Assembly: GCA_965368905.1 (NCBI GenBank)
Contig: CBDUOS010000001.1
Span: 1 to 63,649, forward strand
DNA length: 63,649 bases
Direction: 5' to 3'
Source: an uncultured Bdellovibrionales bacterium
GTDB lineage: Bacteria; Bdellovibrionota; Bdellovibrionia; Bdellovibrionales; JAGQZY01
The stretch's first letter is position 1; each line of letters begins with the position of its first letter. Positions 22,200 to 63,344 of this stretch are shown here, piece after piece. Under the pieces are notes generated by a model. The model had not been told where the DNA came from. It was given only the letters and a program-made list of their open reading frames with translations, and did no database searches. A program made the translations under genes and the position numbers.

Positions 22200-22210
22200 G
22201 AGAATTGTAG

Positions 22211-22783: not shown

Positions 22784-22795
22784 CATAAAGCCACT

Positions 22796-23668
22796 TTGGC
22801 TCGTAAAGACTATTACAAAATTCTAAATGTGGACCCGAAGGCCAACTTGAAAGAAATCAAGTCAGCCTATCGCCAGCTGGCCTTGAAATACCACCCTGAC
22901 CACAATCCAGATAACCCAGATGCCATCAGCATGTTCTCTGAAATCAAGGAAGCATACGAAACTTTAACCACAACAGAACTTAAGAAAAATTACGACTCTA
23001 CCTATCGACCCACCCCTAGACCACAACCAAGAGCCGAGCCCCAACCACAACCAAATGGGACAAAAGCCGGCCAGGGAGGCGGTAAAGGTAAAAACCTTCG
23101 TTACAATTTGTTCATTACTCTCGAAGATGTAGTCAGAGGATGCGACCGTACCATTCGGTATATTCGGACCAATAATAATGAAAAAGAAACTGTTCAAATA
23201 AAAGTTCGGGTTCCAAAGGGGGCCTTCCAAAACCAACGATTGAAGTTGGGAGGGTACGGAGACATTTCAAAAGATGGGGCAGGGGACCTGTTTGTCATTG
23301 TCCACATTCAAAACCATCCTATGTTTATTCGTAATGAACTTAATCTTCGAGTGAATGTTCCAATCACATATGCAGATGCGGCCTTAGGCTCTACAATCGA
23401 TGTCCCTTCACTGAATGGTATACGCAAACTGAAGCTGAAAGTCTGTGAGTTTGATGATCTCCAGCATGTTCTGCGCGGCTTTGGTCTGCCTGACCCTAAA
23501 GGAAACTTCAAAGGTGACCTTATTGTTCACTGTTTTATCGAACATCCTAAACGGTTGAGCACTCAAGAGCGAGCCAACCTAGAAAGAAGCCTCAAAACTT
23601 GGCCTCAGGGCGAAATGATGCAACAATACCAGGTCTACTTACGGGAACTAAAAGGGAGCAAAAAATGA
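22796..23668 (+). CDS. Class II J-domain co-chaperone, CbpA-like (no Zn-finger domain)
   Basis: J domain KDYYKILNV...YRQLALKYHPDHNPDN (HPD motif), then a P/Q-rich linker and DnaJ C-terminal beta domains. There are no CxxCxGxG repeats. The start is a TTG. Confidence 0.85.
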   Translation: MARKDYYKILNVDPKANLKEIKSAYRQLALKYHPDHNPDNPDAISMFSEIKEAYETLTTTELKKNYDSTYRPTPRPQPRAEPQPQPNGTKAGQGGGKGKNLRYNLFITLEDVVRGCDRTIRYIRTNNNEKETVQIKVRVPKGAFQNQRLKLGGYGDISKDGAGDLFVIVHIQNHPMFIRNELNLRVNVPITYADAALGSTIDVPSLNGIRKLKLKVCEFDDLQHVLRGFGLPDPKGNFKGDLIVHCFIEHPKRLSTQERANLERSLKTWPQGEMMQQYQVYLRELKGSKK

Positions 23669-31242: not shown

Positions 31243-31977
31243 ATGATTAGCCCCTATGGTACAGAACGTGAGTTCACCATCGACCCTGGTTGCCCCTGGT
31301 ATGAAGCTCAACAGACATATGGCCCTCCAAATGTGAATTGGTGCGAACCAACTACTTGTGCCCTCATCAATGAACCCATCAACACTTGGACCAATATGGG
31401 TCTTGTATTGGTTGGAGTTTATATTTTATTTAGGTTTAAAAGCTACTTAGGTCGTTTTTTGGGTGGGACTGTTTTAATGATGGGTGTTTTTTCTTTTATC
31501 TATCACGCTTCAAATAACTTTCTCACCCAGTACCTCGACTTTCTCGGTATGTTTACTGTGATGAGCTTTATCTTTGCCGGATCTCTTTTGCGTTTTTTTA
31601 AAGCCAGCCAAGGTTCATTCTTTAATTGGTATTGGTTTATTTTCGCTATGCACTGTGTGATATTTATGATCTTTCATATCAGCAAAATCCCCGTTCAATA
31701 CATTATGTATGTCAGCCTTGGCCCCGTCATCTTGCTAGAATTGCTTATATTTTTAAGAACAAAACAATTTTCTGAGCAGAAGTTCTTTTTTGCGGGTGTA
31801 TTTTTAACCGTCTTGGCGCAAGTGATCGCGATCACCGATATACAACGGATTTATTGCAATCCTAATGGTTGGATCCACGGTCATGCCCTTTGGCACTTGA
31901 TCGGGGCACCAGCGGCATACTGTCTAGCACGCCACTATGACCATCATTTTCTGAATTCACGATCCAACTGGGTTTAA
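31243..31977 (+). CDS. Alkaline-ceramidase-family (ACER/YPC1-like) 7-TM membrane hydrolase
   Basis: 244 aa with about 7 TM helices. It contains NWCEP...INEPINTWTN, YHASNN and HGHALWHLIG, the hallmark WCE / NT.SN / H..WH motifs of the ceramidase family (PF05875), recalled from memory. Confidence 0.6.
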   Translation: MISPYGTEREFTIDPGCPWYEAQQTYGPPNVNWCEPTTCALINEPINTWTNMGLVLVGVYILFRFKSYLGRFLGGTVLMMGVFSFIYHASNNFLTQYLDFLGMFTVMSFIFAGSLLRFFKASQGSFFNWYWFIFAMHCVIFMIFHISKIPVQYIMYVSLGPVILLELLIFLRTKQFSEQKFFFAGVFLTVLAQVIAITDIQRIYCNPNGWIHGHALWHLIGAPAAYCLARHYDHHFLNSRSNWV

Positions 31978-34010
31978 AAAGAATATTGCGCCCGAGCACC
32001 CCATTGAAGAGGGGTTGCGTTTTGCTCATACAAGCGAGCGTTAAAGTTGGGCGGTTCATTACCAAAAAAGAATCCCCTTTGCGAATATCGCTTATTAAAG
32101 AGGTTTTTACCCCAAACTGAAACTTGTAAGTTTTTTCTCAACTCATAGAGCAAACTGGCATTAAATAATTCGTAAGGTTGGGATTGCTCTTCATGACTAT
32201 TTGAATAATAGAATTGATCGCGACCTGTCGTATTTAAATTAAGTTTTATTTTTGATGAAAAGTTTATTACTACACTCAAACTAAACGTGTAGGTTGGAGA
32301 GTGGGCTAGCTCACGCCCATTGTAGCTTTGATTTCTGAGTTCATAGTCTACAAATTCAGCCCGCATAAGTCCCACACTTCCATGCAGTGAGAAATAAGAT
32401 AGTGGCGTCCATTCACCCTGCCACTCTAATCCATAATGATGACTTTGAGCTGCATTATCGACATATAATGTAAATCGGCTGGGATCACTAATATCATCCT
32501 GGCTTGATGTAGTGATTTGATGATGTCTTCGGTCAAGGTAGAAGAAACCCACTTTGTTCCGAAGTTGTTCTCGTTGATAGACCCAGGACAGTTCATAATT
32601 CATAACATATTCAGGGTTATACTCTTGCTGTTCTGTTGTTAGGTTTGTTTCTGGATTGAATCCTGCCCCTTTAAATCCTCTTGCAACCATCGCATGAATG
32701 GTATGATTTTCGCTCGAATAACTATAGCGAATATTAAAGGCAACCGGATAGTTGCTTTTCTGACTGTGAAAACCACCTGTATCTTGATAATCAATTTTCT
32801 GCTCTTCGATTCTCCCGCTCAAATCTAACTGTGATTTTTTTGACCAATGGTAGTTTGTGTTGAACAGTAGAGCGAACTTGTCTGAAGTGTATTCAGCGAT
32901 AAGATCGTCCCGAAGGATTGAATTTCGAAATGAATTCAAATCAGTGTCTTCAGTTTTTCTGTAATAGTGTATCCCATAGGAAATATCCCAAGATCTCCAA
33001 CGATTTTGAATAATAGATTTCATATGAAAATTTGTTTTTCTTCTATTGTGCTCTTTGAAGTAGTCATAGTTCTTATTCCAACCTGGAACAGAAATCCAAT
33101 AGGCATTGTTGTTCCAATCTTCATCATATGACACATATTGATCTGAATGACTGTAGGAACCTATCAAAAGAAGAAAGGAACTCTCAGACAATGGTGTCGT
33201 CCATTCAATGGAATGACCATGAGTGAGCTGATCATCTTTCCCCTTTTTATCAGAAAGAACTATGTAACTGCTATCGGTATTCCAAAAGTCATTGCCATTT
33301 CTGTTTTCCCCTAAAATATGACTTGTTCGTAAAAAGGATGATCCAATCTCGATTTCCCATCCTAAATTTGCGAATGTTTCAAAACGTTTAGATGTGTCTT
33401 CTTGAAGATACAGATTGTAGAAGAAACCATTGGACTCACTAAGCTGAACACCCGCTTTTACTGAAACAACTTCAGACAACGGAATATTCACTTGTCCGCC
33501 TAACACTTTTTGATCCTGAGACCCCGTACCACCCCAGATCGACATGTTTTTCATCGATGCTTTTGAACTCGTTACAAGTACGTTCCCGCCTAAAGAAGAG
33601 TCGCCATATAAAAAGGTTTGCGGCCCTTTCAATACCTCCACTTGGCTGACATCGTAGAGGGAAACCACACCACTCAACCCACCCAAATCAATATGATCAT
33701 AAAAAAATCCAACAGAATTTGATGGCATAGAGTCGTACTCGCTTCTCTCCCCAATTCCTCTAATATTGAAGTAACGTATACGATTTGTGCTGCTGGAAGT
33801 GTTCATATTTGAAAAATGATCCCATAGATTTTCACTATGGAACAAGCTTTCTCCCTCCACGGTACTTTTCAAAAGCGTTTCATGCGGGGGATTAGCAAGA
33901 TGAAAAAATTCATCCTTTTTTCCTTCGACCCTAATTCTTTCTGTTTCTTCTAAATATGCTTTTGAACTTACCGCAATGACTAGACAAAAAATGCATGTGA
34001 ACACCTTCAC
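31974..34010 (-). CDS. TonB-dependent outer-membrane receptor, thiamine-related cargo predicted
   Basis: 678 aa with a signal peptide, a plug region (FNIRGIGERS, VEVLKGPQTFLYGDSSLGG), a long beta-barrel and a terminal aromatic residue (...AQYSF). The GTG start lies directly downstream of a TPP riboswitch. Confidence 0.85.
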   Translation of the reverse strand: MKVFTCIFCLVIAVSSKAYLEETERIRVEGKKDEFFHLANPPHETLLKSTVEGESLFHSENLWDHFSNMNTSSSTNRIRYFNIRGIGERSEYDSMPSNSVGFFYDHIDLGGLSGVVSLYDVSQVEVLKGPQTFLYGDSSLGGNVLVTSSKASMKNMSIWGGTGSQDQKVLGGQVNIPLSEVVSVKAGVQLSESNGFFYNLYLQEDTSKRFETFANLGWEIEIGSSFLRTSHILGENRNGNDFWNTDSSYIVLSDKKGKDDQLTHGHSIEWTTPLSESSFLLLIGSYSHSDQYVSYDEDWNNNAYWISVPGWNKNYDYFKEHNRRKTNFHMKSIIQNRWRSWDISYGIHYYRKTEDTDLNSFRNSILRDDLIAEYTSDKFALLFNTNYHWSKKSQLDLSGRIEEQKIDYQDTGGFHSQKSNYPVAFNIRYSYSSENHTIHAMVARGFKGAGFNPETNLTTEQQEYNPEYVMNYELSWVYQREQLRNKVGFFYLDRRHHQITTSSQDDISDPSRFTLYVDNAAQSHHYGLEWQGEWTPLSYFSLHGSVGLMRAEFVDYELRNQSYNGRELAHSPTYTFSLSVVINFSSKIKLNLNTTGRDQFYYSNSHEEQSQPYELFNASLLYELRKNLQVSVWGKNLFNKRYSQRGFFFGNEPPNFNARLYEQNATPLQWGARAQYSF

Positions 34011-34013
34011 AAG

Positions 34014-34102
34014 GCCCCCTTTCCTACGCCAGTATTAACCGGATCAGGTTCAAGGGTTCACACAACTGAGTGTATCTCAGGCCAAAGCCACCCCTAGGTT
34101 TG
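34014..34102 (-). promoter_or_regulatory. TPP (THI-box) riboswitch
   Basis: The minus strand reads CUAGGGGUGGCUUUGGCCUGAGAUACACUCAGUUGUGUGAACCCUUGAACCUGAUCCGGUUAAUACUGGCGUAGGAAAGGGGG. It contains the invariant THI-element blocks GGGGUG, CUGAGA, ACCC and GAACCUGAUC.GGUUAAUAC..GCGUAGGAA. Its 3' end overlaps the SD and lies a few nt from the GTG start. Confidence 0.9.
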
Positions 34103-34167
34103 AGAACACCAATAAACTTCACTCAAACAGGAGTCAATATTCATATTTTTGTAATATGTAAGATTAA

Positions 34168-49975: not shown

Positions 49976-50563
49976 CTATGTTTTTGTCATCTTAACCAAC
50001 TCCAAAGAAACTTTAAATTTGGGAATTTTCAGTGAAATTTTGTTTTCCAACATCAGTCCTTCAAATAGTTTTCTGCCAGAAACATCTACAGAAAAAGATT
50101 CTCTATTTTTTACAAACCGAAAAGGTTTTTGTTTTCCTCCGGCTAATAGAAATCCTGAAAAATCCCCTTCTTCTTTCAAATCCAGTGTGAGTAACTTAAA
50201 AATCAAAGGCAATGGATCCTGAAGAGGAGATTCTGGAGTGGCGATGAGCCTAGCTTGCTCATTGCCCTTCTGAAACCTTACTCCCTGGCCCTCTGCTCTA
50301 TAGCTTTCTTTGAATTTCACCTTCGGGAAATCAATTGTGTGAGCTGAGAACAGCACATTAGTTTCTGTTAAAATATACGAAGAACTAAAGCGACCGGGAC
50401 TTTTAAAGACTCCAAAACGAACCTCACCCTCTGCATGAAAGTGAACAGTCTCTCCGTGGAACTTAAGGTGGGCCGCAAGATCGACTCCATACAAAAGCCC
50501 TTTACCAAGAATTCTGAATTCAAATGGTGAATGTCGAAAATGATTAAGAGTTTCCAAAATCAT
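49976..50563 (-). CDS. Hypothetical protein, beta-rich, no recognisable domain
   Basis: 195-aa ORF with ordinary composition. It is separated from the upstream operon by a terminator. Confidence 0.45.
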   Translation of the reverse strand: MILETLNHFRHSPFEFRILGKGLLYGVDLAAHLKFHGETVHFHAEGEVRFGVFKSPGRFSSSYILTETNVLFSAHTIDFPKVKFKESYRAEGQGVRFQKGNEQARLIATPESPLQDPLPLIFKLLTLDLKEEGDFSGFLLAGGKQKPFRFVKNRESFSVDVSGRKLFEGLMLENKISLKIPKFKVSLELVKMTKT

Positions 50564-50601: not shown

Positions 50602-50627
50602 AAAAAGACCCGACAAATTGTCGGGCC
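50602..50627 (-). terminator. Intrinsic terminator of the four-gene lipoprotein operon
   Basis: The minus strand reads GGCCCGACA-ATTT-GTCGGGTC followed by TTTTT, about 30 nt after the stop at 50656. Confidence 0.8.
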
Positions 50628-50655: not shown

Positions 50656-53600
50656 TTATTGAATTTTTAGTTCCGCTTCCCAGTTATGTTCACGGTTGAA
50701 AAAACCCTCGGTCACTTCATCAAAGAACTTTTCATATTCCCTTGCAGAATTCTTATAGTTAACGTTCAAACCGTAAACTTCCACAGGCTCCATGTATATG
50801 TTAATACTAACCAAATCTGGGTAATTGTTTTCTTTGATTACAGCCTCTGCAAAATTTTGGGCATTTTTCTCAACTTCAAGTAACCGCTCAAACTTCGGAA
50901 AAACTATATCTTTCATTCTCTTGAAATCATTTTCTACGATTTTATAATCATAGTTAAACATCATTCCAGGTCTCTTTCCTCTAGCCCAAAAAAACTGTTT
51001 GGCTTGTTGACGTTCCCAAACCCAATAGCAGCCATCTCGCATTCCTGCACAACTGTTGTCCATCGGGCGATCATTGCCCTCATTCCTTTTGATGTCCCAA
51101 TTGGTTTGAAAAGTAAGACCCAAAACATCAGCGTCTAAAAGTTGATATGGCAAGTCCATGAGCCCAGCCAAACGTGTATATGGCAATGTCTCTGACATCC
51201 AATTAATGTCCAAAGACATATCAAATTCAATAGCTGTATCCAGAGCTTCGGATCCAACCCATCCTTGAAATCCAGTCAGGTTAAAATAAGCTTGGTCTTC
51301 CTCTGATAATACATAAGACTGAAGAACGTTGCCCATAGTATCAACCAACGTGTCCATACTAGGAGTTTCTTCTCTCACACAGTCATCTCCCAGTTCTTCA
51401 TACTGAGTGACCCAACAGTTTGGCTTGTTAATGTCATAAAATCTTTGTACTGGAATTTGTAAGAAGATTGCCTGCTGTTCCACAACGTAGCGGAATTCCC
51501 AAGCATATTTTCTAAGCTCATATTGATCCCATTGGGTGAATCGAGACCCTAAAATAGCAAATCGACTGTCATCTGTTGTCAACTTAGTAGCCGCTTTAGA
51601 AAACTCATCGACATCTTCTCCAAATTTCAGAGTCCGAAAATTATCAATTGTTGAATTTTGAGAAATATACGGATTATTGCTCGGATCTTCCAAAAATTTG
51701 GGAGGAATCGCAATCTCCAAATAATCACCAACTATGGCTGGAACATTGACTGGCTCAGTATAGGGGGACTGAAAATTCACACTTTCTGTTAAGAATTTTT
51801 TCGTTCTCAACATGTATGTGACTTGTGACAAAGAATAGACCGGATCACCCGCTTCAGAAGCATCGATGGCATCTAAAACTCCTGGGATATTTCCATGAAA
51901 ATCTTGAATAACCTGGTTCGCATCAGCTATTGACAAAGTACCCTCTTTCACGGCCAACATAAGAGGGTGGACGACTTTAGAAAAATACTCATGCTGTGCA
52001 AAAGCTTGTTCACGAATTCTTCTCTTCGCTTCTTTTTCTGCAACAAATAAACAGTCATCAACCTTTTCCATGATGGCTTTTTGAACCCCCAAATAGGTCA
52101 TTTTGAAATGCTCTATCTGCTTAATTTCGCCACGCGCCTCTTCAAGAGTTCCAATATTGAGTTCCGGATGAGCCTCTTTCGCTCTTTCCGCGATTTCCAA
52201 ATACTGATTCAAAGTATAGTAAATTGGTTCAAGCTCTAAACGATAGCGATCATTTGTTTGATGCAAACGTTCAAAGTTCTTAGACTCTTTATAGTAGTCT
52301 CCCCAATAAAAAGATTCCTTGCCGTTTACTTCGTCAAAACCCATGTTAACAATATTGGGAGTAATGTAACTGTTCAGCTCATAAAATGGGATATTTTCAG
52401 GTTCAGGTTGTTGAGATCTGATACCATCGCACCAACGTACCATTTTTGATCCTTCTGAACTTTCATTGAAATAAATCTGCTTTTGAGCCTCTAAAGTGTA
52501 TTCGTACTGCGAGCGTCTTTGCTTGATTAATGTTTCCGCAGTAGCAGCGATAAATTTGTCTGCAGTGATCCCATAGATCTCTGCGGTACGAGTCGTAAAC
52601 ATATAGTAAAGAGCATCGTACATATCAGAACGATAAAGAGTTTTCTTTTCTTCATCCCACCATGATTTCTCTTCCTGCAAGTTGGTAAAGTTAAACCAAG
52701 GACCATAATACTGCCCCGTCATCATGTAATCCATAATGAGGGTTGAATCTAATTTGAATTGAAACCAAAGAATTCTGATAGTGGCTGCCCATTCAGTTTT
52801 CATCATATTGAATGCGAATGCCATCATGTTCGGGTAAGTCACGGCTCGCAAAATATTACGATTGACCGAAGTAAAAAATTCCTGAGTTTTAATTTCGTCA
52901 TATTTGTGGCTGTACCTAATATTCGACTCAATAAATGTCTTAACAGACCACAGTCGAACTGTATGAAACTCTGTCCAAACAGGAATCAAAGTTTTGCTCC
53001 AATCTAACACTTCTTGAAAGTGAGCATTTGTCACCGCATCTTGCTCAGACAAACGATCATGCAGCTTTTCAGTAGATTCAATACCTAGCTGAGCAATATC
53101 CCAGCGAACCAACATTTTAGAGGCCTCAAACATTTCGTCAACAAATGCAGCTTTGTGTTCAATAGAACTCACATAAGAACTTGCGTCTGTAACGGGCACA
53201 TTTTGAAAGTACATTTCTAAGGCCAAATAGGCCACTTCTATAGGACCAGAAAGAAGGCTGTCGATTTGTATATTCGCATAAGCGGGATACTGGCTCAAAT
53301 CTTTACGGCCTGTCTTGATTCTTTCCAAACGCTTTGCAACCTGTTCTTTGATACCCTCTTTTACCGCAGGGCTAATCCGTGAGTAGACAGGAAGAAAGGG
53401 AACAAGCTGCTTTCGAACTGCACTGAGTGCTGTATTAGCATCAGAATCGTATTCCCAGGGCTTAATAAGTTCAAACCAAGCCATTTTGTCAGCGTTTGGT
53501 CGATTCCATTTGTTTTGTACTGTTAAAGCAACAATATTGTTTAAATGAATACGCTGTGTCTCCATTGCAAGTTGTGTGCGACCTTCTTCAACGTCTGCCA

Positions 53601-54222
53601 ATACTAACAAAGCCACTTTCATGTATTCTTGCTCTAGTTTCTCAGAACCACGACGATTTTGCACATCATAAGCCGCGCCAAGTACATTGAGTTTTTCAAT
53701 ATTACCTTCTTTGCTATCAGCAATATTGAGTACAATCCAAAGTGTAGAGGCCTCGTGTCTTAACACTTGCTCTAACATTTCACAGATACTCTGTTCTGTT
53801 CCGAGACATTCGGACAAAAAACGTTCTTCAAACTGTTCCTCAGACACAGCCCATAGTTGTTTCTGCTCACCATTGCCTTGATCAACAATTTGTTTTCCTA
53901 GCTGTACGTAAAGCTCTAGATAAGCTCCATAAGCTGGACTGATGTAAGTGACTTTATCCAAAGATCCTGGACCATATATTCTTCCCTCTAGTTCTTGCAA
54001 AGCTTCGGTCCATTGTCCCTGTTCAATTTGTTCAGCAATCGCTAGATGTGCATCGCTGTATCGATTGGTATCCGGAATTTCACCCTGTTGGGTTACTGTT
54101 TCGACAACTTGATCTCGCGCAACATCATCACGAATCGCTGCCTGCTCATCGGGAATAGTTTTCGGCGTGCATGCAGCCAATGAAGTAAAAACGACAACTA
54201 TCAACAAAAACTTAGAACGCAT
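50656..54222 (-). CDS. Giant lipoprotein (1188 aa), paralog of the 1257-aa protein, no known domain
   Basis: Lipobox MRSKFLLIVVVFTSLAAC. It shares blocks with the 55133-58906 product: VTYPNM...W..F..DS...PWFNF, C..SICE/SCEF and D[LV][KQ]NRR. It overlaps the barrel gene by 11 nt. Confidence 0.7.
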   Translation of the reverse strand: MRSKFLLIVVVFTSLAACTPKTIPDEQAAIRDDVARDQVVETVTQQGEIPDTNRYSDAHLAIAEQIEQGQWTEALQELEGRIYGPGSLDKVTYISPAYGAYLELYVQLGKQIVDQGNGEQKQLWAVSEEQFEERFLSECLGTEQSICEMLEQVLRHEASTLWIVLNIADSKEGNIEKLNVLGAAYDVQNRRGSEKLEQEYMKVALLVLADVEEGRTQLAMETQRIHLNNIVALTVQNKWNRPNADKMAWFELIKPWEYDSDANTALSAVRKQLVPFLPVYSRISPAVKEGIKEQVAKRLERIKTGRKDLSQYPAYANIQIDSLLSGPIEVAYLALEMYFQNVPVTDASSYVSSIEHKAAFVDEMFEASKMLVRWDIAQLGIESTEKLHDRLSEQDAVTNAHFQEVLDWSKTLIPVWTEFHTVRLWSVKTFIESNIRYSHKYDEIKTQEFFTSVNRNILRAVTYPNMMAFAFNMMKTEWAATIRILWFQFKLDSTLIMDYMMTGQYYGPWFNFTNLQEEKSWWDEEKKTLYRSDMYDALYYMFTTRTAEIYGITADKFIAATAETLIKQRRSQYEYTLEAQKQIYFNESSEGSKMVRWCDGIRSQQPEPENIPFYELNSYITPNIVNMGFDEVNGKESFYWGDYYKESKNFERLHQTNDRYRLELEPIYYTLNQYLEIAERAKEAHPELNIGTLEEARGEIKQIEHFKMTYLGVQKAIMEKVDDCLFVAEKEAKRRIREQAFAQHEYFSKVVHPLMLAVKEGTLSIADANQVIQDFHGNIPGVLDAIDASEAGDPVYSLSQVTYMLRTKKFLTESVNFQSPYTEPVNVPAIVGDYLEIAIPPKFLEDPSNNPYISQNSTIDNFRTLKFGEDVDEFSKAATKLTTDDSRFAILGSRFTQWDQYELRKYAWEFRYVVEQQAIFLQIPVQRFYDINKPNCWVTQYEELGDDCVREETPSMDTLVDTMGNVLQSYVLSEEDQAYFNLTGFQGWVGSEALDTAIEFDMSLDINWMSETLPYTRLAGLMDLPYQLLDADVLGLTFQTNWDIKRNEGNDRPMDNSCAGMRDGCYWVWERQQAKQFFWARGKRPGMMFNYDYKIVENDFKRMKDIVFPKFERLLEVEKNAQNFAEAVIKENNYPDLVSINIYMEPVEVYGLNVNYKNSAREYEKFFDEVTEGFFNREHNWEAELKIQ

Positions 54223-55132
54223 AAGTCACCCCTCCTAGGAACACACGACGATATTTATCGTAGTAGCCTAAATCCACTCGTTCGTTTTCTTCATAAGAAT
54301 TATTGATCATGCTGGCAAAAATCTGGAATCCACTAATATTGGCAAATGTTGAAAGGTTGTCACCAAAACTTAAATTCCAACTACCATCTAAATACCGAAT
54401 GGTATCGACTCGCGCATTCCAACGAACACCCCAACGCGGCAAAATCATATAGGTCAGACCGAAACTATCTGAAATTAACCAATCACGGTTCATTTCATCA
54501 TTCGCAAATAATGAAAAGCGTTGTGTGTTCCACAGAAAATTTCCTGTCAAACGATTGAAAACAGAAAAGTTTTTCCAAGAGTAACTTTGCATAAAGTTAG
54601 TTAAAGAAAGGTTTGCAATGTGTTTATCAACCCTAGCTCTTTCACTAACAGGAAGACCAATGTTAAGGGTATTAGAACTTCGACTAACAAAACTTAAAGG
54701 TTTCATTTTTGTATAGACAAGCCCTAAATTGAGATTCGAAATTTGGTGAAACTGATCATTGTCATTATCTCTTACGATGTTCGAGCCATAGGACGCGTGA
54801 CTGAATCCTACAGCACCATAAGAGCTCCAATGTTGGTCAAAACTGTATGTGCCAGCAAAGCTAACCCTATGCCCAACAGTTTTCTGATCCACCTGTTCCA
54901 AATCATCATAAGAAGCCGCATAAGAAACAATCAATCCAAAACTTCTTGCCGAGGGCATAAAGTCTGACTGATCGACTCCGATCTTCTTTTTCTGAGACGA
55001 CTCATCATCTTTTTTAGAGTTAGCCTCATTTTGATCGACCTTCTTCTTAACTTCCGACTTACCAGGCGCTGCGACGGAGACCGCACCTGAAGAAACCAGC
55101 ATTAAAATGAGGAAAAGGTTAAGAAGTTTCAC
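54212..55132 (-). CDS. Small outer-membrane beta-barrel protein (306 aa)
   Basis: It has a signal peptide (MKLLNLFLILMLVSSGAVSVAA) and a Lys-rich linker. Alternating amphipathic beta-strands follow, ending in the OMP C-terminal signature ...FLGGVTYAF. The GTG start directly abuts the upstream stop (TAAGTG). Confidence 0.7.
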   Translation of the reverse strand: MKLLNLFLILMLVSSGAVSVAAPGKSEVKKKVDQNEANSKKDDESSQKKKIGVDQSDFMPSARSFGLIVSYAASYDDLEQVDQKTVGHRVSFAGTYSFDQHWSSYGAVGFSHASYGSNIVRDNDNDQFHQISNLNLGLVYTKMKPLSFVSRSSNTLNIGLPVSERARVDKHIANLSLTNFMQSYSWKNFSVFNRLTGNFLWNTQRFSLFANDEMNRDWLISDSFGLTYMILPRWGVRWNARVDTIRYLDGSWNLSFGDNLSTFANISGFQIFASMINNSYEENERVDLGYYDKYRRVFLGGVTYAF

Positions 55133-58100
55133 TTACTCTTCTCCTTGCTCGGTAGCCACTAGTTCATTGATTTCAGACTGGTAAGTACGCAAAACAGTGT
55201 AGAAGTAGCCACTGGTGTCGTTATTCAACTGCTGAGTGATCCCTTCAAACTTACTATAAATCAAATCACTAATTAACGGCTCCATCGCAACGTTCTTGTT
55301 TTGGCTCCAATCATTCTGATTAGCACCTACAGTATGAACTCGATCAGTTCTGTAACGGAAACGAAAAGCTTCTACATCGTCCTTTTGCGCTTTCACTTCT
55401 TCAAGGAACTCCTGGCTTTTCTTAAAGTACTCGCTAACCCACGCTGAGTAACGGCGTACATAAGCCTCATTGATAAAGTCGGGCGCATCAAAAATAAAAG
55501 TTGAACCTTTAATTTTATGAACAGAGTCTACATACTTAATTAATGTTGGCGCAAACCAAGTCTCTTCAGCAGCGTCGACTCTGGTGTCTGCATAAATTCT
55601 CTTAAACATAAGATCATAATACGAATATAGAACATGCTCATCTTGCTTCTTTATGACTTCTTCATATGTAGAGACGTCGTACTTATTTTCCTTACCAAGC
55701 AGCTCAAGAACCGCCATGTCCCTGTCATCGATATTGATAAATTGAATGGTTCTTTTGTAGTGATCAATCACATCTTTAGCTGAAATTTTCATGCATTTTT
55801 CAACCCGAACTTCTTCGGCTAACTCTGGATCTTTACAGTCAACCTCTGGATCCGTAGAGAGTTCACCAATTTTATAAAGATTGACCAAGATACGACCCTT
55901 TTCTTCGATGTCGCCAATTGGAGTCGTTTTATTGGCCCAGCTCATTTGATTAGCTAGTGCTTTAATACCAGACTTTACAAAGGCTTCCTTGGCTTCCTCT
56001 TTATCTTTTGTCGTCCAGTCAAAGTAAATTAGATCAGGTGATGTTTCCTTGTAAATTCCAGAAGTTTTAAAGTCAGCAGGCATTGTGATCGAGTACTGCC
56101 CAGGAAACAATTCATCCAAATAGGCTCGTACACGAGTGGCTGTATCCATTCGAAACGATGTTAAACGAGAGGGAGTCAACTTATTGTAGCCAAAGCGAGA
56201 TTGGTACTCGGCAGGGTAAGCAGCATCCTGGGTGTTTCCATTAAACTCTTTACGAATTTCTTCTAACTTCTGCATTTCAAGACTGTCGTCTGTAAGAGCC
56301 TGAATCTGTTCTTCTGTCAAAGGCGATAACACATCCCAAACTTTGTCGAACAGGTCACTCAATTCCTCGGCCTCACGGAAAATCATCATGTGAACGATGT
56401 CACGGTCTCTTTGCAAGAATAACCAATCACAGCCTTCAACTTCAGATTGAGCATCTTTAAACAACTTCGCATATTCTGCACGAAGACGATAATACTCCTC
56501 AAATTGTTGCTCGAATATTTCTTCAATTTCAGACTGGTCTCCACCTTTTGTTTGTTTAAAAACGTCAAGGATTGTCCCCAGTTTCACTTCATTTCTAGGA
56601 AATTCGATTCTCATACGCTCAAAGACACCTCGTGTTTTTGATGAATAAATCTTTCCTAGATAATTACCAATTTTATCATTTTTATTATTGGTGCCGTCAT
56701 AAAGGTATGCCCCAATATCGATAAATGCCATTTGGTTTTTAACTCGTCGACGAGGACGCATAGTTTGACGCCACTTCATCACTTCGTACCAGTCGTAATC
56801 TTCACCCAACTGTTCTTTGTAAGCGGCTATTTCTTCAGCCTCCTCTGCTTGCAGACGACGTTCTTCTGCACACATTGTCTGCAACGCACCAGCATTATTT
56901 TTAAACTCTTCAACCTTCTGAAGAAAGCTACGACGATCATTATCAAGTTCTTTCTCCATAGGAAGGAGCATTTTCTTAACAACCGTTTGAAAAAATTCTG
57001 GATGTGAGAAATAAATCAACGGTCGACTCTCGTCTTCTTCTACAGAATAAGTTTCAAAGATTTGAGTCACAAGCGCATAGTAGTAAGTGTACATAATCTC
57101 AGTAGAATCTAGCTTCTCTCCATCATTCCCAAAGTTGAACCATGGAAAGAAGTATCCATCGAAAAACAATGAAATAACAGTCAAGCTATCCACAGTAAAA
57201 GTTCCCCAGAAAGATCGGATTGTATCTTTCATTTCCTGAGAAGCCATCACATACATAAGTGGAAACATGTTAGGGTACGTAACCAAAAATTTAATATTTT
57301 TAGTCATAGCATCTATACTTGAGTTAATTCTCTCGTAAACCTTCGCACTTTCAGGACTCAAGTTGTTTGCATTTACAACACGGGTAATAAAGCTTTTGAT
57401 TGCTTTTGAACGAACAATACTCTTCGTCCAAGCTTTCCTAATTTTACTGGCTTCTTTGTCAGATTCTCTCAACAATTCTATTAATTTCGTGTTTTCATTT
57501 CTGTTGTAAAAATCTTTCATTCTATTGTTCGTTAAAACAATATTGTTAACCAATTGAATCTTTAACAGCTTTTCAATTTCAGCCATTAATCGATCGACAT
57601 TCTTATTGGTGTTACCCCAAAAGGCTGTTGCATCATCTAAGTTGAAGTGACCATAAAAGGCTCTATTCGCAAGATAGAAATACTCGTCCAAATCCTCGCC
57701 CTCGAAACTAACATCAGACAGCATTGTGTTGAGTATGTCTTTACTTTTCCCGCCATATAAGTCGACATCCAGGCCGTTCTCTATTTTAGGAAAAACTTCT
57801 TCTTGTAATGGAGTTAGGTTGCCAACAGGCTCTCCAGCGGCTTTAGCTTCAAGATAGCTCTCATAAGCTTTTTTCCATTCACCACGAATATTGGACTGAA
57901 TAAAATTAACACCTTGCTCGTAGTTTTTACCTACGGAATAGAGAAGCGAAGGAATTACTTCATTTTTTATTTCAGCCGCTAGGTTTCCTTGTTCATCATA
58001 AAGAAGCTGCTGAGAAGCCATTGATAGAATATCTGTCATGGCTGGATTCTTAGCGCTATCCACATTACGAGATAGCATCCAAGGGTTCAGCGCTTTAACC

Positions 58101-58906
58101 AACTCAATATACCTTTGATCGCCATCATAATTATTAATATTTACTTTCAGAATATTCGCGAAAAGATCCGCATCCTGACGACGGCGAATAGGATTTAAGT
58201 TTCCAGCCTGATCTGCATCCAAAGAACCCGCTATTCTTTCTAACAGCATAAAACGAAGGGACGCATCCAATCGTCTATTTTTAAGATCAAATCCAGCGCG
58301 AATTAAACGAAGTTTCTCTGCAGCATCAGTCTCTTGATCATGAATCATTTTAACAATTTGAGACATGTTCACGCTGTCATTGGAACGGAAAAACTTAATA
58401 AATTCGCATGAGCCCTGAAGGTTTTGGTCACAATCCCAAAGAATGGTTTCCTTATACTTCACTAGAAGATCAGTATTAGTAATCATCTCAGGGTTGGATT
58501 CATAAATCATAATCAATGCTTCATTGAACAACACAACCAATCGGGGAACTATATATCGTCCAGATTCTGTCCGTGCATTGCGATTGGCATCAACCATAAG
58601 ATAATTGACGTTGAGAACTACATCTCGCAAGGGGATGATGACTTTTTGCATAAGCATATTGGCATCAACGTTCTCATCAATAACGGCCATTTGACCCATA
58701 ACTATGGCTTCTTTATCTTCCATCATAGTTTGAAGTCTTTGGGTTTCCGCCGATTTTTGAACCACAGGAGTGTCATTTGTTACACCAACAGCTCCGTCTT
58801 GTAGGCTTCTTTTTCTAGTCGAACTCTCTGGTGTACAGTTAGCCAAGACAAAAGCAAGGGCAACTCCACCGACCATCTTAAATATTTTAATACTTGTCGT
58901 TTTCAT
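55133..58906 (-). CDS. Giant lipoprotein (1257 aa), paralog of the 1188-aa protein, no known domain
   Basis: Lipobox GGVALAFVLANC. An AAGGAG SD overlaps the stop of the upstream metalloprotease gene. The paralogy blocks are as listed for 50656-54222. Confidence 0.7.
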   Translation of the reverse strand: MKTTSIKIFKMVGGVALAFVLANCTPESSTRKRSLQDGAVGVTNDTPVVQKSAETQRLQTMMEDKEAIVMGQMAVIDENVDANMLMQKVIIPLRDVVLNVNYLMVDANRNARTESGRYIVPRLVVLFNEALIMIYESNPEMITNTDLLVKYKETILWDCDQNLQGSCEFIKFFRSNDSVNMSQIVKMIHDQETDAAEKLRLIRAGFDLKNRRLDASLRFMLLERIAGSLDADQAGNLNPIRRRQDADLFANILKVNINNYDGDQRYIELVKALNPWMLSRNVDSAKNPAMTDILSMASQQLLYDEQGNLAAEIKNEVIPSLLYSVGKNYEQGVNFIQSNIRGEWKKAYESYLEAKAAGEPVGNLTPLQEEVFPKIENGLDVDLYGGKSKDILNTMLSDVSFEGEDLDEYFYLANRAFYGHFNLDDATAFWGNTNKNVDRLMAEIEKLLKIQLVNNIVLTNNRMKDFYNRNENTKLIELLRESDKEASKIRKAWTKSIVRSKAIKSFITRVVNANNLSPESAKVYERINSSIDAMTKNIKFLVTYPNMFPLMYVMASQEMKDTIRSFWGTFTVDSLTVISLFFDGYFFPWFNFGNDGEKLDSTEIMYTYYYALVTQIFETYSVEEDESRPLIYFSHPEFFQTVVKKMLLPMEKELDNDRRSFLQKVEEFKNNAGALQTMCAEERRLQAEEAEEIAAYKEQLGEDYDWYEVMKWRQTMRPRRRVKNQMAFIDIGAYLYDGTNNKNDKIGNYLGKIYSSKTRGVFERMRIEFPRNEVKLGTILDVFKQTKGGDQSEIEEIFEQQFEEYYRLRAEYAKLFKDAQSEVEGCDWLFLQRDRDIVHMMIFREAEELSDLFDKVWDVLSPLTEEQIQALTDDSLEMQKLEEIRKEFNGNTQDAAYPAEYQSRFGYNKLTPSRLTSFRMDTATRVRAYLDELFPGQYSITMPADFKTSGIYKETSPDLIYFDWTTKDKEEAKEAFVKSGIKALANQMSWANKTTPIGDIEEKGRILVNLYKIGELSTDPEVDCKDPELAEEVRVEKCMKISAKDVIDHYKRTIQFINIDDRDMAVLELLGKENKYDVSTYEEVIKKQDEHVLYSYYDLMFKRIYADTRVDAAEETWFAPTLIKYVDSVHKIKGSTFIFDAPDFINEAYVRRYSAWVSEYFKKSQEFLEEVKAQKDDVEAFRFRYRTDRVHTVGANQNDWSQNKNVAMEPLISDLIYSKFEGITQQLNNDTSGYFYTVLRTYQSEINELVATEQGEE

Positions 58907-58917
58907 CGTATCGCTCC

Positions 58918-61900
58918 TTACTTCTTAATGTACTCATAGATATGCGGCAGGTACCAACCATTCAACGAAAGTGCGGTCGAGCTAATCAGCCCTACGCCGT
59001 TTAATGATTCCTCGCATCCCCATTGGGTTGGAGTTAATCCTTCTCTGCTTTGGTATGCTTCAAATGCGTCATTCAAAGATTTTTCAAAATTCGTCTGCGC
59101 ATCCGGATCGACCGCAATAGATGGATCAATCTGAAAGCCCGTGAACTCTTCATTTGTATTAAAGAAAGTCGCTAAGCCGGCCTGACCCGTAATACATTTA
59201 TCCAGTTCTTGTGTCGTTAATTCAGCAATTGCATTCTTGACTGTAAAACCTTGGAGAGGGTCATCGTAAGAGGTCTTATCGTAAGTCACCTCAAGAGCCC
59301 AAACATAAGCCGCTTCTTGGCTTAAAAATCTCATCTTAGTTAAAGGTAGAATGATTTGTGAGTCATTTCCTCGAACGATCACCTTCTTATCAGGAAGCGC
59401 ATAAGCCTCTGGTAAATCAATAATCTTTCTTTGAGCAAAGTTAAACAACCGTGGACGAAATCCAAATCTTTTGTTTGAAGGTTCACCTGGAATATCAATA
59501 GACTCCAATAGAACGGGGGCAACTTGAACACGAAATTTAGTTTGCGCTTTCAAGTCTTCAATAAAGTTAGTATTGAATCCTCGCGCTTGATTGTCGTTAC
59601 TCCAAAAGTAGGTTCTAAATAAAAAGTAACGCATGTATAGATTAGCTAAGCTCATCGTTGCAGAATCTTGCAATTGAGTTCCACCAAACCCCATATTGTT
59701 CTTCACTGCAGTACCAACAATATCAGTGAACTCTTCTGGATACATAGAAAAGTATCCATACTTTCCTTCGTTGGAGTCGTTATATATTGGTTTTCCAACC
59801 CTCCACCACCAAAATCTGAGGGTTGAAGAAGTGGCCGTCAAAACATCAAGAGCGGCAATCTTCACAGGTAAAAGACCCAATTGATCGTAGGTACCAAAAA
59901 CACGCGAATAGTCAGAAGTCGCCTCACCACCACGCAGACCCGTTGGAACAATTGCAGCATCATAGTTCATGACCGGATGATCGGGGCCTTTCAGGCTTAA
60001 CAATAGTTTAGATATATCTAGTGACTTTTTCGAAGCTCTACAAAGTTTTTGAACCTCAGTGTAAGCCAATCCATTTTCATTTAGCTGCGCTTCCAACGCA
60101 ACAAAACCTTCGTCATCCAACTCGCGAGTGTTTACCTCGCCAAGTATCGATTTATACTTTGCGTACATTGCTCGGTATGAGGAGTTAGTTTGCTGAGCTT
60201 GCAATGATTCTAACGTGTTCACTCCAGATTCAGCATACATAGGTTGTATCGCTAATTTAGTGAACTCTATACCCAAACGATTGTTCGGCGCCATAGAGGG
60301 ATCAATACAGGCTTTAGAAAAACTTAATAAAGCATCTTCATCTTTTTTAATCTTATCGAAAACACTTCGATATAGATCATTATTAGACAACTGATATCTC
60401 ATGTTGTCGTAGAACGTACGGTTGTAGTTCATCAAATTGTAAGTGCTCCACCAAAGACGGTATCTAGCCCAAAAGGGATTTCCACCAGTCGCTTCAGTAA
60501 ACGAATTCAAGCGAGAAATAAAGGAATCCGTGTACTCTTTTAAGTTTTCTTCAACCATCGTTGGGGCATCATGACCACGATCCCATCGACGACAATATGG
60601 ACTCGTTGCCAACCATGCATCAAAATCTGAACACTGTGGCATGTAACGAGTTTGGTATTCTCCAGTTTGGTTTGGAATAACACCATTCTCAGGCACGCTG
60701 TGGAAAGTCCAATCTTCGTCACCCGATTTGTATGAAGAATATTGCTGCTTATAAAGGTAAGTCAGCGTCAACTCATCCTGAGTTCCCATTTTTACTTTTT
60801 CAATAGGTAGTGAAACTTCGGTGTGACCACTCATGTAGTCCATGATGGAAGAGTAGTTAAAACGATCTTCAACCTCAGCTGCTAGTTCATTATAAACTTT
60901 AGGTGGAACCATACCCTTTTCAGGCATTCGGTTTCCTTCGAATTGGTGTCCCAACCCAACAACGTGACCAAATTCATGAAGTGTCACGTTCTTAATCATT
61001 GATTTCGAAGCTTTCAACTTCTCCATTCCGGTCATGCCGGAAACGGCGTTGCTAACAGCATCGAAGTGATTTTCAATACGGTTATCGGCATCGTAAGCTA
61101 AACTTTGATCGCTCAAGAACTCCATTACCAACTCTTCGGCTTTTTCCATTGTCATGGTTGTGCCTTGAACGATATTACGAGACTCTTTCTCTTCATCAGA
61201 ATAACTTACGTCTTGAGTCAATCCAGCAAAACGTGACAAGTCCGAAATAAAGTCTGACTCATCTGCCTGTGCATAAGAAGTGTCAAACACCAAGTCATCA
61301 TCAGACAAGCTTAGCGGCTCTAAGTCATATCCCTCAACATTAAGATTTTCAATGGTGTCGATATCCTGAAGTTGAGAGATTAGCGTCCTAAAAAGTTCAT
61401 CTTTCGAAGATTGATCCATCTCATTAAATTCTTCTTGCGAAATATTTCCAGCGATGGATTCTGCGATCTGTTGGAGCTGTCTTTCTTTAGCAGCAACACT
61501 TGCATCTTTTGAATTGGCGCTTTCTACTATATCCTTCAGGTTGGTAAAGCCTACTGACCAATCAGTGAGTCGCAACTGTGAGGAGAGATCCTCAAAGTAT
61601 GGATTGTGTTTTGCCAATTCCACTTCTTGTAACATGGAATGTGTCTCGCGAGCTAAAGCATCCGCAGTGGATTCACTATCACGATTAACAATATAATCGA
61701 TCAGTCCACCCCAAATTACGGCTCCTCCCCAAAGAATTTCACCGGTTTTGATGTTGGTGTTTACTAATCCAATACCAAGAGGCGCACGAAACGAAAGAAT
61801 CGGATCATCAACCCAAGTGATCGCAGGACAACGTAAGTCAAAATCATACTTGTATTTTTTATCTGAAATGACAAATGCCTTCTGACCTGCTGGAACAGCG

Positions 61901-62877
61901 CCAATTTTGGTCATTGCTTTGTTCATTTCATCGATAACTTCTACTGCAACACCATTATAGTCTCGATTGTCATCGGGAAAACTGTTCAAACAAAATTCAA
62001 CTGGCTTAGAAAGGTCCCAGTGCGCAGCCCAATTTACTTCTTGAGCTCGATTACCCGTTGGTTGGTATCCAAGGATATGAAGAATGTTCATGTGTTTTGC
62101 GTTTCTTGTATTGTAGGGAGTGGGTATAAAATTGGGGTTGTCTTTAATTTCTAGGAAATTAAATCTATATGTATGAGAGAATAAATTTCCATAACGGCCG
62201 TGGGTCATCACACCACTGAAACCAATAAATGTTTTTCCATCTTCAACAGATGTTTCCACATCAAAGGTATCTAAAATTTTTCCACCCCAGTATCCGTAGG
62301 GCCTTCTAAAAATGTCATGGAATTCAATATTGCTTAGATCAAGGTCAATCCATGGACGAACCTTCCATGTTCCACGATCTGTTACTTTTTTGTACTTGTT
62401 CAATTCTCTTCCACGAGAATCCACATCTTTTTCATAATAATAGTGCTGAGTGATATTGATTGAGAACAGAGGCTCCCAGCTTTCAAAGTCATTAGGATAA
62501 TTCAGGTCGACCATCTTACCGATCAGGCTTTTCCCATCTTTTGAGATTCGCATCTCCACATTACAGTGGCGTGATCGATAGGGTGTATTGGATAGTCCAA
62601 ATGCGCCTCGCCATTGTCCACTTTGGGTGACGGGTGCCCAGCCGCAAAGATAGGTTTTCGGTGTGTAAGTGACTTCCAAGCTTTCTTGGCCAATTTGATA
62701 GCCGAAGAAGCTTTTTTTGCAGGAAAGAACACCTTCACGAACCGCACAATTCTCTGTGCTCAGCAGTTCTGGATTTGGATTTTCAGCTTCTGGTGTGACA
62801 TAAGTACAAGAAGTCACAAGAAAAACTGAAATTGATAATATCAATGATGATATGGCAACGGCGAAACATCGTTTCAT
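58918..62877 (-). CDS. Giant metzincin-type zinc-metalloprotease lipoprotein (1319 aa)
   Basis: Lipobox LILSISVFLVTSC. The HExxHxxGxxH motif HEFGHVVGLGHQFEGN lies at residues 634-649 (nt 60946-60978), with a downstream YSSIMDYM Met-turn-like segment. This is the pattern of the DUF4953-type 'zinc-dependent metalloprotease' family (HE.GH..GL.HNF...S.MDY), recalled from memory. Confidence 0.75.
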   Translation of the reverse strand: MKRCFAVAISSLILSISVFLVTSCTYVTPEAENPNPELLSTENCAVREGVLSCKKSFFGYQIGQESLEVTYTPKTYLCGWAPVTQSGQWRGAFGLSNTPYRSRHCNVEMRISKDGKSLIGKMVDLNYPNDFESWEPLFSINITQHYYYEKDVDSRGRELNKYKKVTDRGTWKVRPWIDLDLSNIEFHDIFRRPYGYWGGKILDTFDVETSVEDGKTFIGFSGVMTHGRYGNLFSHTYRFNFLEIKDNPNFIPTPYNTRNAKHMNILHILGYQPTGNRAQEVNWAAHWDLSKPVEFCLNSFPDDNRDYNGVAVEVIDEMNKAMTKIGAVPAGQKAFVISDKKYKYDFDLRCPAITWVDDPILSFRAPLGIGLVNTNIKTGEILWGGAVIWGGLIDYIVNRDSESTADALARETHSMLQEVELAKHNPYFEDLSSQLRLTDWSVGFTNLKDIVESANSKDASVAAKERQLQQIAESIAGNISQEEFNEMDQSSKDELFRTLISQLQDIDTIENLNVEGYDLEPLSLSDDDLVFDTSYAQADESDFISDLSRFAGLTQDVSYSDEEKESRNIVQGTTMTMEKAEELVMEFLSDQSLAYDADNRIENHFDAVSNAVSGMTGMEKLKASKSMIKNVTLHEFGHVVGLGHQFEGNRMPEKGMVPPKVYNELAAEVEDRFNYSSIMDYMSGHTEVSLPIEKVKMGTQDELTLTYLYKQQYSSYKSGDEDWTFHSVPENGVIPNQTGEYQTRYMPQCSDFDAWLATSPYCRRWDRGHDAPTMVEENLKEYTDSFISRLNSFTEATGGNPFWARYRLWWSTYNLMNYNRTFYDNMRYQLSNNDLYRSVFDKIKKDEDALLSFSKACIDPSMAPNNRLGIEFTKLAIQPMYAESGVNTLESLQAQQTNSSYRAMYAKYKSILGEVNTRELDDEGFVALEAQLNENGLAYTEVQKLCRASKKSLDISKLLLSLKGPDHPVMNYDAAIVPTGLRGGEATSDYSRVFGTYDQLGLLPVKIAALDVLTATSSTLRFWWWRVGKPIYNDSNEGKYGYFSMYPEEFTDIVGTAVKNNMGFGGTQLQDSATMSLANLYMRYFLFRTYFWSNDNQARGFNTNFIEDLKAQTKFRVQVAPVLLESIDIPGEPSNKRFGFRPRLFNFAQRKIIDLPEAYALPDKKVIVRGNDSQIILPLTKMRFLSQEAAYVWALEVTYDKTSYDDPLQGFTVKNAIAELTTQELDKCITGQAGLATFFNTNEEFTGFQIDPSIAVDPDAQTNFEKSLNDAFEAYQSREGLTPTQWGCEESLNGVGLISSTALSLNGWYLPHIYEYIKK

Positions 62878-63344
62878 AATAGAGGCCCCTCAAGTTTGTA
62901 CCCCCCCGTTAATCCCAATAATCAGACGATGAAAGTCTCTTTTTAAGGACATTTGGGCAATGTAAATTCTGATGAAAGTAAAGGTTACAGGCCAAAAAGG
63001 GGGTGTTTTGCAAGAAATTCAGCTAGTGATTTCGGGAACTTATGGGACCTATAAGAAAAACTTTGGTTAAAAAAGGGCATTTAAAGCACTTTTACCCTGT
63101 TATTTTTATCCTGTTTTCATCACATTTTTTTCAGAACAAGTGGACCTAAACTGTGACAATCTTTGCGTTTTTTCCGAACAAAGTTTTTTCACTTCTGGAG
63201 TGAAATATTGAGGATTATCACAGTATTTAGTGATTAAAGGGCGTCTCGTGCTGTGAGCACCTCTTTGTTTCGATCTAACTCGCGGCACAATAATTGAACT
63301 CTGATAGGTCAAACCCAAGTTGCCTATATATATGGAGGAGTTTA

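Follow-up and report, generated by a model that had tools for sequence, protein, structure and literature searches.

Several described systems of the Gram-negative cell envelope bring together an outer-membrane barrel, lipoproteins, and an enzyme in various combinations. SusCD and RagAB loci combine enzyme, binders, and channel in one operon, SusC being a 22-stranded TonB-dependent barrel of about 1000 amino acids (aa) with a plug and SusD a TPR-like lipoprotein of about 550 aa. Slam (the type XI system, with TbpB, fHbp, and HpuA as cargo) is a 14-stranded DUF560 barrel with an N-terminal TPR domain, and FapF, the transporter of the Pseudomonas functional-amyloid Fap system, is a 12-stranded barrel. 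On the periplasmic side of the outer membrane, the M48 proteases BepA, YcaL, and LoiP (the last two being lipoproteins) and the NlpI-Prc pair provide a zinc protease and/or a helical lipoprotein adaptor acting on envelope proteins, and elongated helical outer-membrane lipoproteins such as LpoA and NlpI are a known way to reach wall enzymes. Here, we describe a four-gene operon on the minus strand, positions 50656 to 62877, of a 63,649-nucleotide stretch of DNA from an uncultured Bdellovibrionales bacterium (assembly GCA_965368905.1, contig CBDUOS010000001.1; the whole stretch is referred to as the window), which probably encodes an undescribed cell-envelope machine that matches no described system.

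The operon encodes a predicted lipoprotein with a metzincin catalytic domain (P1), two giant helical lipoproteins (P2 and P4), and a small outer-membrane barrel (P3), and this protease-giant-barrel-giant set is found in at least 12 genomes of 37 to 54% GC, in two deeply diverged subfamilies, two gene orders, and differing neighborhoods. The set amounts to about 4000 residues of envelope protein with near-housekeeping conservation across the Bdellovibrio-like group, no annotation, and no literature, and its strict four-way co-occurrence provides a concrete, testable hypothesis of a new barrel-lipoprotein-protease assembly. As a general theme, the assembly is best described as an outer-membrane barrel with lipoprotein partners, together with a putative new protein superfamily. 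In the literature library searched, DUF4953, DUF5117, DUF5118, and PF16313 returned no papers, and a search for Bdellovibrio lipoprotein-protease-barrel systems returned nothing relevant.

P1 to P4 are four translationally coupled open reading frames (ORFs), and the ORF read-out places them at the coordinates given in the first-pass annotation, which had been made from the sequence alone. P1 (58918 to 62877) is a predicted 1319-aa lipoprotein (LVTSC, Cys24), and P2 (55133 to 58906) is a 1257-aa all-alpha giant lipoprotein (LANC, Cys24), the first of the two paralogs. P3 (54212 to 55132) is a 306-aa outer-membrane protein with a GTG start, and P4 (50656 to 54222), a 1188-aa all-alpha giant lipoprotein (LAAC, Cys18), is the second, faster-evolving paralog. 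At the P1/P2 junction, aagTAAGGAGcgatacgATG (TAAGGAGcgatacgATG), the gap is 11 nucleotides (nt) and the Shine-Dalgarno sequence overlaps the stop codon; at the P2/P3 junction, gagTAAGTGaaa (TAAGTG), stop and start abut directly; and at the P3/P4 junction, ATGCGTTCTAA, the genes overlap by 11 nt and AGGAGG precedes. The GTG start of P3 is backed by its orthologs, in which the signal peptide has the same starting point. The four-gene unit is closed by an intrinsic terminator, GGCCCGACAATTTGTCGGGTC plus a T-run (50607 to 50627, minus strand), with a 9-bp stem containing 6 G-C pairs, and a terminator follows the P4 ortholog in the related loci L001, L006, L003, and L009 as well, with compensatory changes in the stem. 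Upstream of P1 lies a non-coding region of 467 nt (62878 to 63344). The first-pass annotation had reported this packing, the terminator, the upstream region, and the three lipoboxes; direct reading confirmed each of them, and its interpretation of the locus as a single operon of envelope proteins is supported.

The lipoboxes of P1, P2, and P4 have equivalents in the orthologs, with the Cys invariant in alignments A1, A2, A4, and A7, so that all three, with a signal peptide ending in a lipobox and an invariant Cys, are predicted lipoproteins. The only transmembrane-like hydrophobic windows in the proteins of the unit are those overlapping the N-terminal signal peptides. Searches of P1 to P4 against Pfam, NCBIfam, PADLOC, and PHROGs gave DUF4953 in P1 as the sole match, and Rfam had no match within the locus.

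P1 is the only one of the four that belongs to a named family, DUF4953, which is itself uncharacterized. Its match to Pfam PF16313 (DUF4953, Met-zincin) scored 28.5 bits against a gathering cut-off of 24.2 (E value of 1.1e-6) and spans residues 623 to 818, or profile positions 8 to 194 of 316, and several P1 orthologs carry precomputed Pfam DUF4953 matches. The catalytic signature noted in the first-pass annotation is present, comprising the zinc-binding motif HEFGHVVGLGH (residues 634 to 644; 60946 to 60978, minus strand) and the Met-turn SIMDY (residues 677 to 681; 60835 to 60849, minus strand). All 55 homologs examined, among them members of the subfamily at 25 to 30% identity, retain an intact HExxHxxGxxH, which argues that catalysis is under selection. 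In 29 of these homologs, almost exclusively P1-type members, the Met-turn is present as S[IV]MDY; M679 and Y681 are invariant in alignment A6. With this zinc site and conserved Met-turn, P1 can be placed in the metzincin clan; assignment to M48 was rejected, as there was no M48 match and the extended HExxHxxGxxH motif points to the metzincins.

P1 resembles DUF4953 proteins in passing the gathering score and in carrying HExxHxxGxxH and the Met-turn. It differs in its length of 1319 aa, its predicted lipidation, its extra N- and C-terminal regions, and the constant presence of three partner genes. The typical architecture of the family is DUF5117-DUF4953-DUF5118, and neither flanking domain gave a Pfam match at an E value of ≤1 anywhere in P1. 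A conserved N-terminal domain (about residues 25 to 400) is followed by a variable stretch (about 440 to 600) with an acidic segment (about 480 to 540), and about 500 aa make up a C-terminal region; neither the N-terminal 400 aa or so nor this C-terminal region has a Pfam match. Between subfamilies, conservation is highest over the N-terminal 400 residues, at 33 to 35% identity. Besides the lipid-bearing Cys, P1 has twelve Cys, ten of which are invariant among orthologs. A profile search with P1 recovered 53 clusters, all with E values of <1e-127, comprising a P1-type group at 39 to 79% identity and a second group at 26 to 34%; against PDB sequences, the protease-family profile gave just motif-level metzincin matches (E value of >0.1). 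A relationship between the noncatalytic regions of P1 and the giants was also considered and rejected (hhalign probability of <1%).

P2 and P4, which had been taken for paralogs from the outset, are indeed related, though distantly: BLASTP gave an E value of 4e-12, and profile-profile comparison with hhalign gave a probability of 99.2% and an E value of 1e-19 over 769 columns. They are best regarded as ancient paralogs. An exhaustive profile search, which took in 1.84 billion representatives, recovered 148 clusters of giants (clustered at 50% identity) at E values of ≤1e-3, the full-length ones being mostly 1050 to 1390 aa, and of 104 full-length giants, at least 87 have a recognizable lipobox. 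Across an alignment of 42 members, invariance is confined to the lipid-bearing Cys, four more Cys, and one Pro. The Cys pairs 159/167, 679/826, and 1024/1038 of P2 are homologous in position to 139/147, 598/724, and 936/948 of P4, and such even numbers of Cys at homologous positions fit disulfide-bonded extracytoplasmic proteins.

The earlier statement that the giants match no known family was upheld by the searches made. Pfam gave nothing consistent and no repeat family across 42 giants, P2 has no Pfam or NCBIfam family, and the P4-family profile found nothing among PDB sequences at E values of ≤10. The sole PDB-sequence match of the giant superfamily, apolipoprotein A-IV (E value of 0.0065), was read as amphipathic-helix composition, not homology. 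P4 was modeled by AlphaFold2 as all-helical (mean predicted local distance difference test score [pLDDT] of 69; predicted template modeling score [pTM] of 0.55), with confidence over residues 50 to 840, and whole-chain Foldseek comparison of this model against PDB and BFVD, the fold libraries used, found nothing at E values of ≤1e-3. A TPR, HEAT, ARM, or Sel1 solenoid identity for P2 and P4 was likewise rejected at the level of the whole chain, as the best PDB matches, to generic HEAT/ARM solenoids (FANCD2/I, CRM1, and karyopherins), had E values of ≥1.8e-3 and template modeling (TM) scores of about 0.1. By these comparisons, the giants form what appears to be a new protein superfamily.

P3 has a signal-peptidase-I type signal peptide, conserved in orthologs, and a C terminus ending in YAF; YAF or YVF ends eight aligned orthologs, and the final Phe is invariant in a 32-member family alignment. 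The AlphaFold2 model (pLDDT of 80.5 and pTM of 0.72, from 32 homologs) shows twelve long strands over residues 64 to 306, joined by turns that are short on the periplasmic side and by longer loops on the outside. Residues 14 to 46 are disordered and include a Lys/Glu linker at about residues 23 to 46. P3 is therefore modeled as an outer-membrane beta-barrel with a generic 12-stranded fold. The description of P3 in the first-pass annotation as a porin-like barrel ending in YAF holds for the barrel and its terminus, but not in the sense of a 16-stranded porin, which the twelve strands contradict. In a Foldseek search, 184 PDB matches were found at E values of ≤1e-3, with FapF first and the COG4313 channel, NanC, KdgM, and OmpG after it, and the 50 matches listed are all outer-membrane beta-barrels. 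P3 matches no Pfam family, a scan of 32 barrels giving just weak generic OMP_b-brl matches in 4, and the list of P3 homologs stops sharply at 43% identity. The most conserved element of the family is the segment QKKKIGVDQSDFMPSAR (residues 47 to 63) just before strand 1, with a majority fraction of 0.81, followed by loop L3 at 0.79; strands and presumed extracellular loops are equally conserved (0.66 each), and charged residues are conserved in loops L2, L3, and L6. Such loop conservation is unusual for outer-membrane proteins and suggests that the loops are covered by a partner or folded into the lumen.

Conservation of the four-gene synteny in relatives, which had been put forward as a check on the proposed system, was found to be strong. 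The protease-giant-barrel-giant order of the window is present in L001, L003, L004/L010, L006, L009, L014, L015, L016, L017, and L018. Close relatives with this order (L001/L008, L003, L006, L007, and L009) are classed as Pseudobdellovibrionaceae, Bdellovibrionia, and Bdellovibrionales metagenome-assembled genomes (MAGs); L007 fits the order, its protease gene being cut by the contig end. In L004/L010, the order is kept and the downstream genes differ (tilS and ftsH). The second subfamily, comprising L014, L016, L017, L018, and the frameshifted L015 (38 to 54% GC), has the same order and components that are all homologous to the four of the window, with the proteases of the two subfamilies sharing just 25 to 33% identity. 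Its position-2 giant is the ortholog of P2, implying that duplication of the giant predates the split of the subfamilies. L012 (GCA_041259715.1) carries two divergent modules back to back, at 403 to 9283 (minus strand) and 10001 to 20915 (plus strand), one of each subfamily and both reordered as barrel-protease-giant-giant, with an 88-aa ORF between them. Contig ends and frameshifted assemblies aside, no module lacking one component was seen. The named homologs are all annotated as hypothetical proteins and come from uncultured Bdellovibrionales-type MAGs or metagenomes; exact-cluster look-ups aimed at a cultured host gave just MAG or unnamed entries, and two scans of metagenome contigs with barrel and protease alignments yielded no confirmed relative.

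The degree of conservation within the window clade is also informative. Identities to four relatives are 77, 79, 67, and 64% for P1; 73, 75, 57, and 56% for P2; 72, 77, 64, and 69% for P3; and 55, 58, 41, and 42% for P4. The corresponding figures are 83, 80, 79, and 76% for the neighboring Mfd and 78, 82, 76, and 72% for the GH3 hydrolase, so that P1 is conserved almost as well as Mfd. Because the neighbors in the window are housekeeping genes (those for Mfd, Nuo subunits, the GH3 hydrolase, Lon, and LigA) and P1 is conserved nearly to their level, the locus would fit a core envelope function specific to the lineage better than a specialized predation island. The label of predatory bacterium derives only from the taxonomy of related MAGs, and a predatory way of life is something that we infer for this organism.

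The lipoproteins carry short motifs at a set spacing from the lipid anchor. Many homologs of the protease, from both subfamilies, have [ET]-[TN]-P-x-P after the lipid-bearing Cys (C-TYVTPEAENPNP in P1 of the window), and the P1 tether motif C-TYVTPEAENPNPxL is conserved. Many of the giants carry a His 9 to 12 residues past the lipid-bearing Cys, as in C-x8-PRxxHEGP (N-termini of proteins P0101-P0244), which occurs as H[EQ] in 34 of 87 (36 of 87 within +23) versus 3% of random windows. Such placement suggests a role in docking or sorting.

In the reading that we favor, to which we give slightly less than an even chance, the four genes encode subunits of one outer-membrane-associated protease complex. 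One translationally coupled mRNA would yield all four proteins. P3 would be embedded in the outer membrane as a 12-stranded beta-barrel, P1 would be an active metzincin-type zinc endopeptidase anchored to the membrane by its lipid, and P2 and P4 would be disulfide-bonded, helical, noncatalytic arms that scaffold the protease or hold its substrates. The three lipoproteins would dock on or beside the barrel via the short tether motifs conserved some 10 residues past the lipidated Cys, and the assembled machine would cut proteins at the outer membrane as a near-core, lineage-specific envelope function of Bdellovibrionota-type bacteria. The physical complex, its outer-membrane location, the docking of the tethers, the proteolytic role, and the membrane face on which it would act are what we infer from the observations above. 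Several points weigh against this proposal. Contact among P1 to P4 is presumed rather than observed, the lipoproteins may be retained in the inner membrane, and a metzincin motif does not identify a substrate. Furthermore, the P4 model was built on just 8 sequences and is poor over the last 200 residues, and P2 (SLQDG) and P4 (IPDEQ) of the window have lost the tether His, indicating that the motif is not essential here. Finally, peptidoglycan-metabolism genes recur as neighbors and hint at a different, periplasmic role.

A more specific arrangement is possible but clearly less probable, namely, an undescribed machine restricted to Bdellovibrionota in which the barrel threads or docks three tethers, with the metzincin and two helical arms held on the cell surface. 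If this were the case, the operon would represent a way of displaying lipoproteins on the surface that is new, and the machine would be a candidate tool against prey envelopes.

Alternatively, P3 may be a dedicated translocon, akin to Slam, a type V barrel, or FapF, for the three lipoproteins or for their unfolded tethers, with the protease and its helical partners placed on the cell surface and acting on external targets such as prey envelope proteins. This is closest to the idea in the first-pass annotation, and we consider it unlikely, if only a little more so than the arrangement just described. The top Foldseek match of P3 is FapF (5o67/5o65; E value of 4.5e-9), a polypeptide transporter that is likewise a 12-stranded barrel, and the disordered periplasmic linker of P3, leading into its conserved pre-strand-1 segment, recalls the linker-plus-plug of FapF. 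In addition, motifs about 10 residues from the lipid-bearing Cys lie at about the length that would span a barrel, by our estimate of the geometry, and related MAGs are classified in predatory lineages. However, TM scores to FapF are just 0.50 to 0.55 at 10 to 13% identity, and generic 12-stranded channels match equally well or better. Residues 14 to 46 of P3 are disordered, with no predicted N-terminal coiled coil, homologs of FapA-E are not present, and the partners of P3 are folded, disulfide-bonded giant lipoproteins, whereas those of FapF are amyloid subunits; the similarity to the FapF family was therefore read as a resemblance of fold and membership was rejected. Barrels of the type-2 subfamily (277 to 282 aa) moreover do not have the long N-terminal extension.

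Slam shares with this operon a barrel gene beside lipoprotein genes and the idea of a barrel that handles lipoproteins, but P3 has 12 strands and no helical domain, neither P3 nor its 32 homologs match DUF560 or TPR, and Slam cargo is beta-rich, whereas the proteins here are helical and some 1200 aa long. Membership in the Slam family was rejected, as was membership in type V (autotransporter or intimin), since P3 has no fused passenger and no Autotransporter or POTRA match and its partners are independent lipoproteins. The initial expectation that the barrel would fit neither the Slam nor the SusC families is borne out by its 12 strands and by its having no DUF560, TPR, TonB_dep_Rec, or Plug match. 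Folded, multi-disulfide proteins of 1200 to 1300 aa would also be poor cargo for a 12-stranded lumen, and the housekeeping context and near-housekeeping conservation further argue against dedicated display. Should the machine nonetheless act at the surface, it would bear on how predators handle prey envelopes and on lipoprotein export in Gram-negative bacteria.

Somewhat less probable again is a periplasmic role in wall metabolism or division, in which the lipoproteins, on the inner face of the outer membrane, would reach the peptidoglycan, and the protease, with the helical giants as its guides, would control wall-remodeling or outer-membrane-assembly proteins in the manner of NlpI-Prc, LpoA/LpoB, or BepA. 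Peptidoglycan-related genes adjoin the module in three contexts. In the window clade, a GH3 family hydrolase gene (possibly NagZ-type) is convergent downstream of the module; in L018, a NamZ gene lies directly downstream; and in L016 (about 51% GC), the module (1731 to 13369) is followed, after a 17-nt gap and with no terminator, by ftsW-murG-murC-murB-ddl-ftsQ-ftsA-ftsZ (13386 to 22857), while in L015, from a genome related to L016, the module (8992 to 21252) is divergent from ftsW. These neighbors are a post hoc lead only, noticed in about 3 of 8 contexts. The use of helical lipoproteins to reach wall enzymes, as by LpoA and NlpI, is consistent with such a role, but the giants have no likeness in sequence or fold to NlpI, LpoA, BepA, or any TPR family, and a dedicated barrel is left unexplained. 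The M48 proteases and NlpI-Prc further differ from the present proteins in being gluzincins (or, for Prc, S41) rather than metzincins, and the proteins here have no detectable TPR, are three to five times larger, and come with the barrel. If the machine does act in the periplasm, it would bear on lineage-specific control of wall or outer-membrane biogenesis.

Nutrient harvesting is slightly less probable than a wall-related role and, in our view, doubtful. Here, the products would constitute a TonB-independent "utilisome" whose surface protease cuts external proteins, whose giants bind them, and whose barrel passes the peptides. P3 does resemble substrate-specific 12-stranded channels, with the best TM scores being to the COG4313 channel Pput2725 (4rl8; 0.59/0.66) and KdgM (target-normalized TM score of 0.77), and with NanC also matched; the charged residues conserved in loops L2, L3, and L6 would suit such a function, and the operon resembles SusCD and RagAB loci in joining an outer-membrane barrel, lipoproteins, and an enzyme. 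Unlike P3, however, the COG4313/Pput2725, NanC, and KdgM channels are solitary and have no coupled lipoproteins, and P3 is set apart by the conservation of its N-terminal extension and of its loops and matches no sequence family. SusCD membership was rejected on the 12 strands of the barrel and the lack of TonB_dep_Rec, Plug, or SusD family matches; neither a TonB-dependent transporter nor a SusD-like protein is present. Exposure of the lipoproteins on the surface is a supposition, strict 1:1:1:1 coupling to binders of 1200 aa would be atypical of an uptake system, and no peptide transport or catabolism genes adjoin the operon.

That the four are simply co-transcribed envelope genes with independent functions, as the annotation of every member as a hypothetical protein might allow, is most improbable, since the four families stay together across two subfamilies (25 to 33% protease identity), 37 to 54% GC, and changing neighborhoods, retain translational coupling, and remain together through the barrel-first rearrangement in the two adjacent copies of L012.

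The 467-nt region upstream of P1 contains blocks conserved in relatives and is a candidate for operator, promoter, and leader elements. In an alignment with L001, L006, L009, and L003, CTAGCTGAATTTCTTGCAAAA, CTGTAACCTTTAC, and GCATTG are conserved, and a near-invariant G-rich leader, TTGGGATTAACGGGGGGGxACAAAC..AGGGGCCTCTATTATG, lies just 5' of the P1 start (62878 to 62921). An operator-like candidate inverted repeat, TTCTTATAGGTCCCATAAGTT (CTTATrG-N3-5-CCATAAG; 63037 to 63057, minus strand), retains its arms in all five aligned relatives, including L003 (CTTATGCTAGCCATAAG). The inverted repeat and the leader suggest that a regulator site and a leader have been conserved here. A search for a sigma-70 hexamer pair upstream of P1 gave no convincing candidate, and there was no excess of sigma-70 promoters. 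Beyond this region, a divergent lipoprotein gene (MNKFKIIMAVLAVVGSTALVNC...) on the plus strand begins at 63345 and runs off the end of the window at 63649.

On the other side of the operon, P5 (195 aa; 49976 to 50563, minus strand) was considered as a further member of the unit and rejected, as it is encoded past the terminator, carries no signal peptide, and does not occur in other lineages. P5 is basic (isoelectric point of 9.6), has no family match, and is syntenic in close relatives, among which it evolves very fast (26 to 38% identity). An anti-phage defense or phage-derived module was also rejected, since none of the five proteins (P1 to P5) has a PADLOC or PHROG match.

Apart from the peptidoglycan genes, contexts of the module include tilS/ftsH, a RES toxin gene, and genes for two-component regulators. 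In L014, positions 1 to 9827, 5' of the module, encode ExbB-ExbD-ExbD, a 970-aa protein, a TPR protein, an FHA protein, and a PAS histidine kinase, an arrangement unique among the loci. About 5 kb upstream of the module in L018 (1 to 4800, minus strand) is a gene for a trimeric-fiber-like protein longer than 1600 aa that carries PTL_trimer and Peptidase_S74 (intramolecular chaperone) domains. Elsewhere in the window, a thiamine pyrophosphate (TPP) riboswitch (RF00059, 63 bits; 34004 to 34105, minus strand) lies directly upstream of an ORF (31974 to 34010) for a TonB-dependent receptor (Plug and TonB_dep_Rec), which implies thiamine-regulated uptake across the outer membrane.

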